IMG/VR virus record: IMGVR_UViG_3300031688_001339
Length of the DNA: 64,000 bases
From: a virus
Direction: 5' to 3' (one strand)
Shown here one piece after another: positions 3,229 to 39,652 of the stretch. The notes under the pieces were generated by a model. That model was not told the origin of the DNA, made no database searches, and saw nothing but the letters and a program-made list of their open reading frames with translations. How positions within the stretch are numbered: the stretch's first letter is position 1; the number at the start of each line of letters is the position of its first letter. Made by a program: the position numbers and the translations under genes.

Positions 3229-3726
3229 ATGGTAAATAACGATCAAACATCAATTCACGTACAATTAGCAGAGTTAACCAAAGACGTACAACAGGTTAAT
3301 AATATTCAAAGTAGATTGGATATTGCTATTGATAAGTTAACAGATGTATCAACTCATATTAAATCTATGCTGGCAGTACATGAAGAAAAGATAGAACACC
3401 AGGAAAAAATAGATGATGTCATATTCTCAAAACTTAAAATTAGAGCTAGTGAGACATCAACGTTAGAAAACGAGACTAGACAACTAATAGAAGAATCAGA
3501 GCATAGACTATTAAGTGAGATAAAAGAACGAAAGACAGAGAGTATTGATTCCGAGACCAGAATAATGAACGAGATAAAAGATTTAAAGAAAAGTATAGGT
3601 AATCGGGTAAGTTTATTAGAAAAATACAAATGGATAATCATCGGTGCCTTTCTGGCAATGGAAGCTGTAACAGCAATGTCACTATCTAGGAACGGATTGA
3701 TCTCCTGGTTCTCATTTTTAAATTAA
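3229..3726 (+). CDS. Coiled-coil protein with C-terminal TM helix (late, membrane-anchored)
   Basis: Heptad-rich body, hydrophobic WIIIGAFLAM segment, preceded by a late promoter. Confidence 0.6.
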   Translation: MVNNDQTSIHVQLAELTKDVQQVNNIQSRLDIAIDKLTDVSTHIKSMLAVHEEKIEHQEKIDDVIFSKLKIRASETSTLENETRQLIEESEHRLLSEIKERKTESIDSETRIMNEIKDLKKSIGNRVSLLEKYKWIIIGAFLAMEAVTAMSLSRNGLISWFSFLN

Positions 3727-3772: not shown

Positions 3773-4777
3773 ATGTCTAGTTATATTGATCTAAAATTTA
3801 TTAACAACCTTTCAGGTAGATTAGGACAGTTTAAGAAGAAAACTGACTATCTATTTAATTTCAGATGTCCACATTGTGGAGATTCAGAAAAATCCAAAAC
3901 AAAAGCAAGGGCATATTTCTACAGAGTAAAGAACGACATGTTTTTTAAATGTCATAACTGTGGTCAAGGCCAAAACTTCTCTAACTTCTTAAAGTATGTT
4001 GATCCTAAAATGTACGAAGAATATCTATTAGAAAGATATAAAGGGTCGGCACCATCTACAAAGAAACCAGATTGGGAGTTTGAGAAACCTGTATTTAAAA
4101 ACATTGGTATATTAGAATCATTAAAAACTATAGAACAATTAGATGATGAACATACAGCAAAAATTTACATAAAGAAAAGAAAGATACCTGAAAAGTTTTA
4201 TGATAAACTATATTATACTGATAAATTTGAGGAGTTAGTAAACAAAATTAAACCAAACACATACAAAATTCAAAATGATCACGAAAGATTAGTAATACCT
4301 TTTTATAATACAACTGGTGATTTATTTGCGTTTCAAGGTCGTGCATTAGGTAAAGAAAATCCTAAATACTTAACAATTAAACTAGATGAAAATAAACAAA
4401 AAGTATTTGGTTTAGAACGTATAAATTTTCAAGATCATGTATATATAGTGGAAGGACCTATAGACGCTTTGTTTATAGACAACTGTATCGCAGCTGCTGG
4501 TGCAGATTTAATGTTAAATAACAAGGTACCTAATAATAAAATTACCTATATATTTGACAACGAACCAAGAAACAAAGAAATTATAAACCGTATGTATAAA
4601 ATGATTGATAACGGATTCAATATTGTTATATGGCCTGAAGATCAAACACTAAAAGATATTAATGATATGATAATTAGTGGCTTGACAAAACTACAAATAA
4701 AAGATATAATAACAGATAACAGTTACTCACAGTTAAGTGCTCTTACTAAACTAAACCATTGGAAAAAAATTAAATGA
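3773..4777 (+). CDS. gp61: DNA primase (T4 gp61-like)
   Basis: Zn finger CPHCGD..CHNC; TOPRIM motifs VEGPIDA and FDNEPRN. Confidence 0.95.
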   Translation: MSSYIDLKFINNLSGRLGQFKKKTDYLFNFRCPHCGDSEKSKTKARAYFYRVKNDMFFKCHNCGQGQNFSNFLKYVDPKMYEEYLLERYKGSAPSTKKPDWEFEKPVFKNIGILESLKTIEQLDDEHTAKIYIKKRKIPEKFYDKLYYTDKFEELVNKIKPNTYKIQNDHERLVIPFYNTTGDLFAFQGRALGKENPKYLTIKLDENKQKVFGLERINFQDHVYIVEGPIDALFIDNCIAAAGADLMLNNKVPNNKITYIFDNEPRNKEIINRMYKMIDNGFNIVIWPEDQTLKDINDMIISGLTKLQIKDIITDNSYSQLSALTKLNHWKKIK

Positions 4778-35115: not shown

Positions 35116-35643
35116 ATGGCAATAAGTGTTTTAGATAAACTAGTAGATAACGCAGGTGGTACACCAAAGTCTGCTTCATGGTATAGAAAAGCAATATCAA
35201 CTATTGCAGATAGAGTAACATCTAGAAAGTTGATGAATCAAGGAAAACTAATTGGCCGACCAAGTGTTGGTAGATTAAATATGTTTTTCTATGACCCTAA
35301 ATACAAGAAGACATTACCATATTATGATACGTTTCCGTTGGTACTACCAATAGAGACAATACCAGGTGGATTTGCAGGTATTAACTTTCATTACCTACCA
35401 CCAGCACAGAGATTTACTTTGTTACAACAATTACAAAGATTTGCCGTAAGAGGCACTATTGATGATAAGAATAGATTTGATGTTAGTTATAATAGAGTAA
35501 AGAATATAAGTTTAACAAAAGGTGCAATTAAAAAATACTTATGGGCACATACTAGAAGTAGTTTTTTAAGAATAGATTATGATGAAGCTGCATTAGCAGT
35601 TTATTTGCCAGTTGCACAATTTAAAAAAGGGAAACCGTATTAA
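35116..35643 (+). CDS. gp2: DNA end protector protein (gp2)
   Basis: FFYDPKYK..LPYYDTFPLV, GINFHYLPP..R. Confidence 0.9.
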   Translation: MAISVLDKLVDNAGGTPKSASWYRKAISTIADRVTSRKLMNQGKLIGRPSVGRLNMFFYDPKYKKTLPYYDTFPLVLPIETIPGGFAGINFHYLPPAQRFTLLQQLQRFAVRGTIDDKNRFDVSYNRVKNISLTKGAIKKYLWAHTRSSFLRIDYDEAALAVYLPVAQFKKGKPY

Positions 35644-36623
35644 TGGCAATTTTAAGAGGCGGCAAAAGAATTGGTGGTTACGATATTCGTATCGGTATAC
35701 CGAGAGATAGATCACTAGACAACGTAACAGGTGATCCAAGATTAAAACGTACACAAGGTGGTAATCCTGAATCTACAATGGGTAGAGTACAGGCAATGGT
35801 CAACGAGGCAGAGGGTTTTGCTAGAAAGGCAAGATTTTATGTTGAGTTTCATTTACCTAAATCACTACCTGGTGACCTCAATGGTGGTGTAGGCAATGTA
35901 TCTTCTTCAATGACCGATGAAACGTATGACTCATTTTTTAAGGCCGAAGATATGAATGCTATGCACATTGCAAACGCTAAACGTGTTCAAGCATTTTGTA
36001 GTGCAATTGAAATGCCCGATAGAGAGATAGTCACAAAAGAAATTAGACATGGTAATGCTCCACCTAGAAACGTGGCATATGACATGAAGACACAAGAAAT
36101 AACAGCAACATTTTATGCAGACAAATATTTAAGAGAGAGATCGTATTTTGAGGCATGGCAATCAGCAGCATTTAGTAACAAGTCTTATAACTTAAATTAC
36201 TTTAAGAACTATGTAACTGATATGAGAATATATCAATTAGGTTCATTTGAGTCAAGACAAGAGAGAGACGAGATAACATATGGTGTACAACTTATGGAGT
36301 GTTTACCTACTTCTATTAGTAAAGTTGAATATTCACATGACGAGAATACTGTACAGACATTTTCTGTTACATTTAAATTTACAAACTGGATCAATTTCTT
36401 TTTAGATAAATCAGGCAATATTGAACTAGGCCAATCGCAGTTCAGTACACCAACAGTTAAACAAGATTCAGGTTTATTGGGAGGTTTATTAGGTAAACTA
36501 CCACCGGAATTGAGAAGAGCAGGTAGAGACGTGTTGAATGATTTGAGACGTAGAGTACCACTAGGTAAAATTACCGGCGGTAGAGCGTTCCCACCATTTA
36601 AACTACCACCAATAAATATATAA
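35643..36623 (+). CDS. Tail tube-like baseplate initiator (gp54/gp19 fold)
   Basis: AR..RF.V, C....MP, TFY.D....R.YFEAW, P..IS; follows gp2. Confidence 0.65.
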   Translation: MAILRGGKRIGGYDIRIGIPRDRSLDNVTGDPRLKRTQGGNPESTMGRVQAMVNEAEGFARKARFYVEFHLPKSLPGDLNGGVGNVSSSMTDETYDSFFKAEDMNAMHIANAKRVQAFCSAIEMPDREIVTKEIRHGNAPPRNVAYDMKTQEITATFYADKYLRERSYFEAWQSAAFSNKSYNLNYFKNYVTDMRIYQLGSFESRQERDEITYGVQLMECLPTSISKVEYSHDENTVQTFSVTFKFTNWINFFLDKSGNIELGQSQFSTPTVKQDSGLLGGLLGKLPPELRRAGRDVLNDLRRRVPLGKITGGRAFPPFKLPPINI

Positions 36624-36641
36624 TAACAAAAGGATAATATT

Positions 36642-37376
36642 ATGGCATTACCAATAATAGAGACACCAACATATGAGTTGACATTACCTTCCCAAGACAC
36701 AAAGATTAAATTCAGACCGTTTCTTGTTAAAGAAGAAAAAATGATGTTGATAGCATTAGAGTCTGGTGAAGAAAAACAAATACAAGACGCAACTAAAGAA
36801 GTTTTAGGTGCATGTACATTTAATAAATTAGACATGGACAATGTACCAACGTTTGACATAGAATATATGTTCTTACAAATAAGAGCCAAGTCAGTAGGTG
36901 AAGTTTCAAAATTCAAAGTAGTTTGTCCAGACGACAAGAAAACTTACGTAGATATTGAAATAGATTTATCTAAAGTTGAGGTACAAGTAGACGATGAACA
37001 CACAAATAGAGTAGTTATTGATGAACAAAGGCAATTAGGAGTTGTTCTTAAATACCCTACTTTAAAGATGTTAGGTCAAAAAGATACAATGTCGGCAGAC
37101 TATGATACTGTATTTGAAATGATGTTAAACTGTGTTGATCAAATATATGAGGGTGAGAAGATATACCCTGGTGTAGATACTAGTAAAGAAGAATTGAAAG
37201 ATTTCTTTGAGAAATTACCAACTGGTTCTTTTGAGAAGATTAAAAAATTCTTTGATACAATGCCTAGATTGAGACACGAGCAAGAGGTAACCAATCCTGT
37301 TACTGGTGTTAAGAGTACAGTGACCTTTACCGGTCTACAAGATTTTTTCGGATTGGCCTCTCCCATAATAGCCTAG
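36642..37376 (+). CDS. gp26: Baseplate hub assembly protein gp26 (tail-assembly-chaperone-like)
   Basis: MALP...PTYEL, FRPFLVKEEK, FDIEY.FL.IRAKSVGE, FF.TMP, GLQDFF. Confidence 0.9.
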   Translation: MALPIIETPTYELTLPSQDTKIKFRPFLVKEEKMMLIALESGEEKQIQDATKEVLGACTFNKLDMDNVPTFDIEYMFLQIRAKSVGEVSKFKVVCPDDKKTYVDIEIDLSKVEVQVDDEHTNRVVIDEQRQLGVVLKYPTLKMLGQKDTMSADYDTVFEMMLNCVDQIYEGEKIYPGVDTSKEELKDFFEKLPTGSFEKIKKFFDTMPRLRHEQEVTNPVTGVKSTVTFTGLQDFFGLASPIIA

Positions 37377-37381
37377 AGGCC
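37343..37381 (+). promoter_or_regulatory. Candidate -1 programmed ribosomal frameshift signal
   Basis: In-frame heptamer T TTT TTC (37343-37349), 5-nt spacer, stem GGCCTCT (37355-37361) / AGAGGCC (37375-37381). Confidence 0.75.
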
Positions 37382-37540
37382 TACTTTGAAATTAACTTTT
37401 CGTTAATGCAACATCACAAGTATAGCATTAGTGAAATAGAAATGATGATACCATGGGAACGTGATATATACGTTACTATGTTGATCAACTATATTAAAGA
37501 AGAAAATGAACGAAGACAAAGAGAAAGTGCAGGAAAATAA
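37349..37540 (+). CDS. gp51: gp51-like baseplate hub assembly region, in the -1 frame of gp26 (not in ORF track)
   Basis: RIGLSHNSLEAYFEINFSLMQHHKYSISEIEMMIPWERDIYVTML...; the gp51-like residues begin upstream of the first ATG in this frame. Confidence 0.8.
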   Translation, partial: RIGLSHNSLEAYFEINFSLMQHHKYSISEIEMMIPWERDIYVTMLINYIKEENERRQRESAGK

Positions 37541-37542
37541 AA

Positions 37543-37809
37543 ATGAAAAAGAAACAAATTAAAGAGAATAAGTTAGACATAGATGGTGATGGTAAGATAA
37601 GTTTTGCAGAAGCTTTCCCTTATTGGTTTGATAAGTTAAGAATATTCCCTAGAGTGTTCATATCAGTGTACATTTATATGTTCTATCAAGTGGCACAATG
37701 GTTTATGTTATTAGAAAGTCCAAATAATGCACAAGCAGGTCTTGTATCTGTTGTAGTAGGTGCTGGCGCTGCCTGGTTTGGGTTATATGTTAATTCAACA
37801 AAGAAATAG
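37543..37809 (+). CDS. Small two-TM membrane protein with an EF-hand-like loop (holin-like)
   Basis: DIDGDGKISFAE followed by two hydrophobic helices. Confidence 0.65.
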   Translation: MKKKQIKENKLDIDGDGKISFAEAFPYWFDKLRIFPRVFISVYIYMFYQVAQWFMLLESPNNAQAGLVSVVVGAGAAWFGLYVNSTKK

Positions 37810-37823: not shown

Positions 37824-39200
37824 ATGGCATTACCATTAGTAGACAACCAAGACACAGATAACACTAGAATTGCAATAGAAAATTTAGGCAATCAAATTAT
37901 GGAAAGGGCGAGTTCGTCTATATCGGCGGCTACGAAGTCTATTATTCCTAATGTACCTAAAATGATTGAAACTTTAACTGTTGATCTACAAAAAGGTCCT
38001 ATTAATAGTTTTAATAATGTCATTGTAAAGTTAGAGAGAATGGTACAAGCATTAGGTTTAGATTTAAGAGAGTACAGTACAGACTTGGCTGACATGTTAC
38101 AACAAAGAGAAGAAAAGGCAATAGAGTCAGACAAGAGAGTAATGAACTTAAAGGAACAGAATATTGTTGCACGTGTTAACAAAGACACCAAAGAAGTTGA
38201 AATCTTAACTAGAGCACAAATAAGAACTGAAGAAAAATTATTAAAGAAGAAAGAACTGTCTATTATATTACTAGAGAAAGAGATTAAACTTGATAGAAAG
38301 AATTTACAAACAAAAGATAATCTATCTAACGCAGAGAAAAAGGCAACAAAAATTAGATTAGAAGAAAATTCAGAGAAGTTACAAAACATTAAAGGCGAAA
38401 GAGACCAATCAGCAGAAATGTTACAACCAAGTGGTTCAACAGTAGACACAGGCAGATCACAAGGTCTACCAATGTTTTTAGAAGAACTAAAAGACGCATT
38501 TATGGGACCTTTTCAAGCAATTGGTGAATCATTTAACATGATCAAAGATATGGGTAAAAACACAGGTGAGTTAATGAAATTCTTAGGTGGTGGTTTTCTT
38601 TCTACATTTAAATCATTAGGCAAAGGAATAAAAGCAATAGGTGGTTTCTTTACACTTGCAAGACTAGTGTTAATTGCTAAATTTGCATTGATTGTAGGCG
38701 CTCTAACATTTGTAGCATTGAACATCAAAAAGATCAAAAACTTCTTTGTTAAAATTATAGATTGGTTTAGAAATTCAAAACTAGGTAAACTATTAGGTCT
38801 TAACAAAGACCAAACACCAGAGGAGAAAATAGAGAGAAAGAGAAAACAAGAAAGTTTTGGTATGGACGATATGATGAGTGATTTTCCTTCTGTTGAGAAA
38901 TATGAAGACGCAGGTCCTCAAAATGCACCTATAGAGAAGAATAGTAAAATGGGTACAAAACGTATTGATCAATTAAATAACAATGATTTTAAGTTTACTG
39001 ATAACAAAGCGGCAGTAACAGAGTTTGATAGTTTACAAAAGAAAGCAAACGAACAATTATCAAAGAATAATATAATAATTAATAATAACTCACCAACTGT
39101 AAATTCATCAAGTAGTGGATCAGTAGTATCAGGTTTTATTAATAATAGAGCAGACGATAGCTTTATAAATGTAGGCAACAAAAGTTGGGCAGACGTTTAA
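37824..39200 (+). CDS. Putative tape measure protein (gp29-like)
   Basis: Coiled coil plus Gly-rich amphipathic/hydrophobic segment, C-terminal NNNSPTVNSSS; lies after gp26/gp51. Confidence 0.55.
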   Translation: MALPLVDNQDTDNTRIAIENLGNQIMERASSSISAATKSIIPNVPKMIETLTVDLQKGPINSFNNVIVKLERMVQALGLDLREYSTDLADMLQQREEKAIESDKRVMNLKEQNIVARVNKDTKEVEILTRAQIRTEEKLLKKKELSIILLEKEIKLDRKNLQTKDNLSNAEKKATKIRLEENSEKLQNIKGERDQSAEMLQPSGSTVDTGRSQGLPMFLEELKDAFMGPFQAIGESFNMIKDMGKNTGELMKFLGGGFLSTFKSLGKGIKAIGGFFTLARLVLIAKFALIVGALTFVALNIKKIKNFFVKIIDWFRNSKLGKLLGLNKDQTPEEKIERKRKQESFGMDDMMSDFPSVEKYEDAGPQNAPIEKNSKMGTKRIDQLNNNDFKFTDNKAAVTEFDSLQKKANEQLSKNNIIINNNSPTVNSSSSGSVVSGFINNRADDSFINVGNKSWADV

Positions 39201-39652
39201 CGGCCAATACCTAAATCCTTTTCAGTAATAATCTTAAATTCAGCATTTTGATCTTCACAATATTTTGAAGCGGCTTGCCATTTGGCTTGGTTCTTGATAT
39301 ACTCTAAAGATTCACGCATGTAAGACTTGGTCTTTCTGCTTACTGGTTTCTTTGGTGGTTTGCATTGACGTGATGGTTTAATCTCTATAATCAATTTCTT
39401 ACCTTGTTTAGTCTTCACTATGAAGTCAGGATAGTATCTGTGCCATTTGTTATCAATTGGACTGTAGTATCTAATTGCCAATTCTTCACTTGCCCAATTA
39501 TCTATGTTAGGACTGTTATCGCAGAACACCATAAACCGTCTCTCTAAAAGAGACCGATATATGATGGTCTTTACGTTACCTACATACTTTCCTGGGTTGA
39601 TTGGGTTATATATTCCTTTAAAAGACTTCTTCATAATGTTATAAATATACAA
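39197..39652 (-). CDS. gp4: Head completion nuclease (gp4, TnsA-like)
   Basis: P.NP.KYVG, YRS.LER.FM..CD, WASEE, HRYYPDF, IEIKP, NQAKW. Confidence 0.92.
   Translation of the reverse strand: MYIYNIMKKSFKGIYNPINPGKYVGNVKTIIYRSLLERRFMVFCDNSPNIDNWASEELAIRYYSPIDNKWHRYYPDFIVKTKQGKKLIIEIKPSRQCKPPKKPVSRKTKSYMRESLEYIKNQAKWQAASKYCEDQNAEFKIITEKDLGIGR
39640..39647 (+). promoter_or_regulatory. T4-type late promoter for gp48
   Basis: TATAAATA. Confidence 0.65.

Follow-up and report, generated by a model that had tools for sequence, protein, structure and literature searches.

The window analysed here, that is, the whole 64,000-nucleotide (nt) stretch taken from IMG/VR virus record IMGVR_UViG_3300031688_001339, comes from a marine T4-like myovirus. 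On its plus strand it carries a gene for a protein of the gp26 type whose 3' end overlaps, in the -1 frame, a sequence resembling a part of T4 gp51 (Table 1). The closest named relative for this gene is found in Pelagibacter phage Mosig, with 53% protein identity. The comparisons set out below make it likely that this is a two-product gene for tail/hub assembly chaperones, whose longer product would arise by a programmed -1 ribosomal frameshift on the heptamer T_TTT_TTC.

The gp26 gene and the overlapping -1 frame

Residues 8-236 of the gp26 open reading frame (ORF) match the Pfam family PF12322 (T4_baseplate; 1.9e-66), and the same ORF matches the baseplate hub family phrog_150 (2e-71) over profile positions 5-234 of 282. 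Its 3' end reads ..GAT TTT TTC GGA.., and since the first T of the heptamer occupies the third position of the Asp codon, the phase fits a -1 slip. An earlier note on this DNA, made from the letters alone, had pointed to this in-phase heptamer at the end of gp26, and the site is indeed there. The -1 frame stays open over 37313-37540, with the translation FFRIGLSHNSLEAYFEINFSLMQHHKYS..PWER... From both Phe codons on, this product matches phrog_634, the baseplate hub assembly catalyst family to which gp51 belongs (3e-29), and it further matches positions 230-276 of 282 of phrog_150. As gp26 covers positions 5-234 of this last profile and the -1 product takes over at 230, the profile continues through the frame change. 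At the level of sequence, the PF12322 domain and the gp51-type tail are thus collinear, provided that a -1 shift joins them.

The predicted long form has 299 amino acids (aa), of which 236 are read in the zero frame (36642-37349) and 63 in the -1 frame, with the junction ..GLQDFF-RIGLSH... The zero-frame carboxy terminus of the short form is ..GLQDFFGLASPIIA. In window numbering, the predicted tryptic peptides that belong to each form are STVTFTGLQDFFR for the -1 fusion and STVTFTGLQDFFGLASPIIA for the short form.

The expected number of TTTTTTC copies in the window is 37.8 and the observed number 31, only five of them on the plus strand. Because the heptamer alone is not beyond chance and the hairpin behind it is of moderate quality, our case is built on comparison; it is the conserved context that lifts the finding above chance. 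As a separate observation, 26 of the 31 copies lie on the minus strand, as would suit a coding strand rich in A (positive AT skew) and genes depleted of T runs on their sense strand.

Table 1. Features of the gp26 locus and the genes behind it, in window coordinates
Feature	Position	Strand	Basis
gp26 ORF, zero frame, 244 aa; presumed equivalent of the amino-terminal tail assembly chaperone (TAC-N; short form)	36642..37376	+	ORF list, Pfam, PHROG
Slippery heptamer T_TTT_TTC in X_XXY_YYZ phase	37343..37349	+	sequence, phase, conservation
Spacer GGATT, 5 nt, from heptamer to hairpin	37350..37354	+	sequence
Hairpin, 7-bp stem GGCCUCU/AGAGGCC with 13-nt loop; candidate stimulator	37355..37381	+	fold, partial conservation
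Zero-frame gp26 stop TAG, straddling the boundary of hairpin loop and 3' arm	37374..37376	+	sequence, ORF list
-1-frame tail coding region, 63 codons, from CGG at 37349 to stop TAA (37538-37540)	37349..37540	+	open frame, PHROG, T4 gp51 alignment
88-aa ORF; context outside the recoding signal	37543..37809	+	phrog_10198 (unknown function), 6e-18
458-aa ORF, possible tape measure protein	37824..39200	+	HTVC008M synteny, feature lead

Conservation of the slip site, the tail and the hairpin

Eighty IMG/VR loci related to the gp26 gene (61-98% identity) were taken together with four named phages. The first set (n = 84) comprises the window, 79 IMG/VR relatives (61-80% identity) and the phages Mosig, Sf-CH11, S-H68 and Melnitz; the second (n = 82) comprises 80 loci grouped around that of Prochlorococcus phage P-SSM2, plus two from KVP40-like vibriophages. 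A run of at least six T whose first T is the last base of the codon preceding the Phe-Phe pair, with a gp51-like tail in the -1 frame, is present in every one of the 84 first-set loci, and the same phase and frame relation hold in 82 of 82 P-SSM2-like and KVP40-like loci. They are found again in distant named phages (HTVC008M, P-SSM2, Vibrio nt-1, Sinorhizobium phiM7 and phiM9, Pseudomonas pf16, Stenotrophomonas Ps15, Delftia PhiW-14, Aeromonas Ah1, S-PRM1, ACG-2014i and S-CAM4). The in-phase slip site is therefore invariant over about 180 loci from more than 10 genera, finished isolate genomes among them. Alignment of the junction across relatives had been put forward in the earlier note as a check, and the T run and the -1 relation came through it constant, along with one compensatory change in the stem. 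The heptamer itself varies within narrow bounds: T_TTT_TTT also occurs, as does T_TTT_TTG in phiM9, and longer runs are seen as T7 in three loci (L064, L065 and L075) and as T8 in Melnitz and HTVC008M.

This constancy extends to the choice of synonymous codons. Among 60 unique coding sequences of the window clade, only eight of the 72 degenerate columns with an invariant amino acid never change codon, and two of these eight are adjacent slip-site codons, GAT and TTT; the codon after this TTT is TTC in 57 of the 60, even though Phe is elsewhere encoded by TTC less often than by TTT. In the P-SSM2 clade (73 unique coding sequences), codons are frozen in five of 100 comparable columns, two of which are the TTT and TTC of the slip site. 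Hence, 89-95% of comparable codons vary while those of the slip site stay fixed, and by this comparison the slip-site nucleotides are conserved beyond what the amino acids need. The pattern of variation also changes frame at the T run: ahead of it, column variability is highest at third positions of the gp26 frame, and right behind it, the 20 codons before the first ATG included, at those of the -1 frame. The comparative data further place the -1-frame tail under purifying selection, and its conservation is unaffected by the place of the gp26 stop, which lies 10 or 31 nt past the first T in relatives.

By the same comparisons, the tail has no conserved start codon of its own. In the window, the first ATG, GTG or TTG of the -1 ORF stands at 37406, 21 codons past the slip and within a conserved block (..NFSL-M-QHHKYS..), and no Shine-Dalgarno-like motif was seen upstream of it. 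A gp51-like -1 frame, conserved from before any ATG and devoid of a ribosome-binding motif, had been claimed in the earlier note and is borne out here by the phrog_634 match together with this late start. The Met at 37406 is often replaced by Ile or Leu in close relatives (ATA, TTA, CTA, CTG, ATT), and among 58 unique tails of about 64 codons the first ATG falls at codon 21 in 23 and at codons 34-45 in 33. A search of 1.84 billion representative proteins with a tail profile recovered 1,838 clusters, 530 of them at E 1e-10 or better. Starts called in the best 149 of the 1,838 clusters are scattered: 46 lie upstream of Phe-Phe, 53 fall within positions 4-9, 19 within 10-20 and 22 from position 21 onward.

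Stimulators of -1 frameshifting usually lie 5-9 nt beyond the slippery sequence. In the window, the minimum-energy fold contains a hairpin at 5 nt (-16.5 kcal/mol, z -2.4; 4 of 200 shuffled sequences fold equally well), with its arms at 37355-37361 (GGCCTCT) and 37375-37381 (AGAGGCC). The perfect 7-bp stem after a 5-nt spacer that the earlier note described is thus present in this phage, whereas as a conserved feature it shrinks to 5 bp: the core GCCUC/GAGGC is retained in 41 of 43 distinct clade sequences. A single compensatory change, C-G to G-C in loci L075 and L076, pairs a Glu-to-Gln replacement with a synonymous change in a Leu codon. Synonymous sites within the hairpin are frozen, even where the gp26 of relatives stops earlier, and its Leu and Glu codons are the GC-rich choices CTC and GAG in a genome of 34% GC. 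Different hairpins occur 3-9 nt past the heptamer in other lineages, namely P-SSM2 (z -3.9), Sf-CH11 (z -3.5), phiM7, nt-1 and phiM9. A role of the hairpin as frameshift stimulator is plausible on these grounds. An Rfam search at the slip site and hairpin returned no family. We also considered the hairpin as a terminator and rejected this because there is no terminator-like site.

Counterparts in T4 and in lambda

In T4, gp26 (208 aa) and gp51 (249 aa) are listed as hub assembly chaperones (Leiman et al. 2010, Table 2; PMC3004832). Their genes are divergent neighbors (minus strand for 26, plus strand for 51). PF12322 accounts for residues 2-205 of gp26 (5e-63) and residues 1-201 of gp51 (4e-52); gp51 additionally covers phrog_150 positions 13-280 of 282 and matches phrog_634. 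The part of gp51 from residue 200 to residue 244 aligns to the window's -1 product at residues 2-47 (E 2e-5). F200 of T4 gp51 coincides with the slip site's second Phe as well as with the point where PF12322 ends, and T4 gp26 stops two to three residues later. T4 gp51 thus consists of PF12322 and the tail joined at the slip position, and T4 gp26 and gp51 therefore correspond to the predicted short and long products: gp26 shares with the zero-frame product the PF12322 domain and the position at which the profile ends, and gp51 shares with the fusion the PF12322 domain and a tail homologous to the -1 product. The difference is that the short and long forms are two diverged genes in T4, whereas the window has one PF12322 ORF. 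T4 also provides a natural control, as its gp26 ends in ..KEFFELL with the two Phe encoded by the non-slippery TTC TTT, and neither gene 26 nor gene 51 has a slippery run.

The copy number of PF12322 agrees with this correspondence. The complete genomes of Mosig, HTVC008M and P-SSM2 have one match each, and so does the window, against two in T4. With a single copy, a gp51-type protein in Mosig, HTVC008M and P-SSM2 is possible only via recoding; by analogy with these complete relatives, a second PF12322 gene elsewhere in the genome of the window phage would be excluded. The fusion of gp26 to gp51 by a -1 frameshift, which was the central proposal of the earlier note, accordingly draws support from several sides: the conserved slip site, the switch of frame in the codon periodicity, the want of a conserved start codon and the single PF12322 copy.

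The same arrangement bears on a puzzle that dates from 2010. Sullivan et al. (2010; PMC3037559) recorded that the cyanophage and marine vibriophage forms of gp51 have about 20% of the length of other gp51 proteins and are without the first ~200 residues. This "short gp51", for which PMC3037559 offers no explanation, is the same object as the window tail. The marine proteins would be a fifth of the length of the T4 protein because the missing ~200 residues are supplied by gp26 via the frameshift.

The predicted fold gives suggestive evidence on the nature of the shared amino-terminal part. The protein that was modeled, from a 63-row alignment, is P0002, a 299-aa in-frame metagenomic relative and not the window fusion itself; it is 50% identical to the window gp26 and 65% identical to the window tail. 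P0002 is probably an assembly error, because its frame change sits a few bases upstream of the T run. The model (predicted local distance difference test 87.9, predicted template modeling score 0.84) shows the tail as four helices (residues 232-298). In an exhaustive search of 48,161 chains, its top match was 2OB9, the HK97 tail assembly chaperone (Z 7.1, root mean square deviation 3.4, 84 residues aligned), followed by 3FGX (Z 6.9) and 3KLU, YqbN (Z 6.8), while all others stayed at or below Z 5.2; the top three all align to model residues 1-95. We take YqbN to belong to the HK97-type chaperone group. As the best fold matches are tail assembly chaperones (TACs), the model suggests a TAC fold for the shared part, in keeping with the literature, and strengthens the analogy with lambda G/GT. 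A Foldseek search of the PDB with the P0002 long-form model gave nothing meaningful, and a profile search against PDB sequences gave a chance match only. A complex prediction for the tail with the gp54-like tube initiator (35643-36623) scored 0.01 and has no bearing either way.

In lambda, a -1 frameshift yields gpG and gpGT, a scheme established for long-tailed phages (Levin 1993; Xu, Hendrix and Duda 2004, 2013, 2014; summarized in PMC5009743). The likeness lies in one gene with two products that have a common amino-terminal part, in the expectation that neither product is present in virions, and in a zero-frame stop close behind the slip site. On the other hand, there is no detectable sequence similarity to gpG/gpGT, and the amino-terminal domain of the window protein, at about 235 aa, is about twice as large. 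Also unlike lambda, the window gene lies in a baseplate-hub cluster with a small ORF before the presumed tape measure gene. The slip site of lambda is G_GGA_AAG, which works without a strong stimulator; that of the window is T_TTT_TTC with a possible hairpin. With this parallel, T4-like phages would follow the two-form tail chaperone scheme that is nearly universal among long-tailed phages.

Proposed mechanism, alternatives and annotation

Most ribosomes would read gp26 to its TAG and release the 244-aa short form with the PF12322 domain. A minority would pause with Phe-tRNAs on TTT-TTC (37344-37349), probably aided by the hairpin 5 nt on, slip by -1 so that the Phe-tRNAs re-pair on TTT-TTT, and then continue in the -1 frame (CGG ATT GGC..) to 37540. 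The outcome would be the 299-aa long form, a PF12322 domain with a 63-residue helical tail, and the two forms would be equivalent to T4 gp26 (short) and gp51 (long). By analogy with lambda gpG/gpGT, the shared domain might sit on the hub/tape-measure complex while the rarer tail form recruits another tail component; in the lambda model, the partners are the tape measure for the shared domain and the tube protein for the -1 domain, and the ratio is about 30:1 (PMC5009743). Neither form would be part of the virion. What we observe are the signals, their conservation, the switch of frame in the pattern of variation and the matching order of domains; from these we infer a shift on the ribosome, an efficiency that favors the short form, a stimulatory hairpin and the binding partners of both proteins.

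Several points weigh against this reading or some part of it. The heptamer of phiM9 (L090, 1201-1207) is less canonical, as T_TTT_TTG puts Leu in the A site. As regards the hairpin, only the 5-bp core is conserved, with one compensatory change, variable outer two pairs and covariation statistics that are not significant, and structures are weak in the pelagiphage-type Mosig, Melnitz and HTVC008M, two of which have T8 runs. The fold match is middling (Z ~7), covers only the first ~90 residues and was obtained with a model of the relative P0002, and the downstream 458-aa ORF is possibly a tape measure protein, going by synteny and a feature lead. Finally, an ATG lies 3-6 codons past the slip in many cyanophages, vibriophages and rhizobiophages, sometimes as TAATG or TGATG at the gp26 stop; in phiM9 the stop overlaps the -1-frame ATG in the latter form (TGATG).

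This last point leads to the view that the tail is made independently, as a separate small "gp51" (44 aa from the ATG at 37406, or from a non-canonical start), with the T run simply coding for a conserved Asp/Ser-Phe-Phe. Many GenBank records annotate such a separate protein, and the lineages with an early ATG, which at times overlaps the gp26 stop, could also make one. Nonetheless, the slip site is kept equally strictly in those very lineages. In the window, the first start would forfeit 20 conserved residues and has no Shine-Dalgarno-like motif before it; the ATG at 37406 is not conserved in many close relatives, and the codons preceding it evolve as -1 coding sequence. The slip-site codons are frozen beyond the need for Asp/Ser-Phe-Phe, whereas T4, with its separate long gene, uses TTC TTT, and T4 gp51 shows the tail working when attached to the PF12322 domain. 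We regard independent translation as quite improbable. Almost no credence is due to the view that the tail is left over from a long gene disrupted by a frameshift mutation, or by a homopolymer sequencing error. Homopolymers are error-prone, and a few singleton in-frame metagenomic ORFs of 299 aa exist (P0001 and P0002), yet the same frame relation recurs in about 180 independent loci of more than 10 genera, including finished isolate genomes, and selection continues to purify the tail. P0001 and P0002 themselves change frame a few bases upstream of the T run (..TRFFRI.., ..KRFFRI..), as errors would.

A rival that retains both products is transcriptional slippage, in which RNA polymerase adds an extra U on the T run and no ribosome needs to slip; a 1-nt insertion yields the identical frame change, and the relatives with T7 and T8 runs, which also have the weakest hairpins, suit it best. 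Bacterial RNA polymerase slips efficiently at homopolymers of about 8-9 residues or more, however, and the run of the window, like that of most relatives, comprises only six T. The T before both Phe codons, which P-site re-pairing needs, is strictly kept; hairpins 3-9 nt downstream recur in several lineages; and the zero-frame stop follows close behind. Polymerase slippage is for these reasons an unlikely source of the long form, and it may make a minor contribution alongside the ribosomal shift. Taken together, the comparative evidence supports a -1 shift joining the gp26 body to the gp51 tail as the only reading that fits all of it.

The novelty that the earlier note implied does not hold, as the principle appears to have been published already for T4-like phages, with the window as one more instance. 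As represented in papers citing it, Vladimirov, Gautam and Davidson (Virology 2022; 566:9-15; PMID 34826709) describe a short TAC-N and a long TAC-NC in T4-like phages. The report on phage Adele (PMC12846349) credits these authors with poly-T -1 slippery sequences in T4-like TAC-N genes, and that on PRFect (PMC10885494) credits them with the observation that frameshifting is replaced in some T4-like phages by a pair of genes, a short one and a fused long one. The window results agree with both statements in the form in which they are credited. We found no experimental proof of the shift in T4-like phages in the literature, where searches on gp26, gp51 and frameshifting otherwise yielded only unrelated phages with coincidental gene numbers. 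There is a rather small chance that one of two further propositions applies: either polymerase slippage makes the long form wholly or partly, at least in lineages with T7-T8 runs and weak hairpins, or a ribosomal shift operates in a one-gene state with lineage-specific hairpins that was ancestral to T4 genes 26 and 51, these having arisen from it by duplication. If true, either would extend the 2022 bioinformatic description.

The proposed frameshift also exposes a systematic annotation error in gp26/gp51 records, and one that is widespread, to judge from the 1,838 clusters of public proteins that the tail profile recovers. None of the GenBank records examined annotates a shift or joins the two parts; they give either a small separate ORF (a "gp51" of 44-60 residues whose start is arbitrary) or nothing at all for the tail, the latter in the records of Ah1, S-PRM1, ACG-2014i and S-CAM4. 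In RefSeq/GenBank, a tail region of about 170-180 nt is left "intergenic" in L176 (Ah1; 2217-2384) and in L177, L178 and L179 (~913-1095). A recent Pfam accession, PF28602.1, is assigned to the tail-bearing proteins P0001, P0003-P0005 and P0007-P0010 and may already define the gp51 tail domain. P0010 (301 aa, three member sequences) has a divergent PF12322 domain with the tail in frame and the junction ..NIRDILALSLSH.., without a Phe-Phe or T run of the usual type, and might represent, in an uncultured lineage, a long form naturally encoded in a single frame, as T4 gp51 is. In P0004 (213 aa, from a JGI metagenome), the tail ORF continues in frame into a Gly/Ala-rich hydrophobic protein resembling the amino terminus of a tape measure, which could be a natural fusion or an artifact of gene calling or assembly.

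Neighboring genes

The earlier note had a probable tape measure gene following closely on the -1 frame; an 88-aa ORF in fact intervenes, and the presumed identity of the gene behind it comes from synteny and a feature lead. The 88-aa product contains a DxDGDG, EF-hand-like motif below the Pfam cut-off and is hydrophobic in its carboxy-terminal half; a small ORF occupies the equivalent position in Mosig, Melnitz, HTVC008M and phiM7. The syntenic counterpart of the 458-aa ORF in HTVC008M is annotated as "putative tail tape measure", and the ORF has a feature score of 0.93 to the PF25671 (T4_Tape_measure) cluster, which serves as a lead only. It has no Pfam or PHROG match, and BLASTP gave nothing significant against the HTVC008M gene or T4 gp29.

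The gene at 39197-39652 on the minus strand encodes the head completion protein gp4 (phrog_218, 6e-56) and is the only minus-strand gene in this run of plus-strand tail genes. Far upstream, two adjacent plus-strand ORFs of 165 and 334 aa (3229-3726 and 3773-4777) match phrog_451 at positions 7-109 and 131-461, respectively, and the second also matches the DNA primase family phrog_47; the pair looks like a split primase or one with a separate amino-terminal domain.

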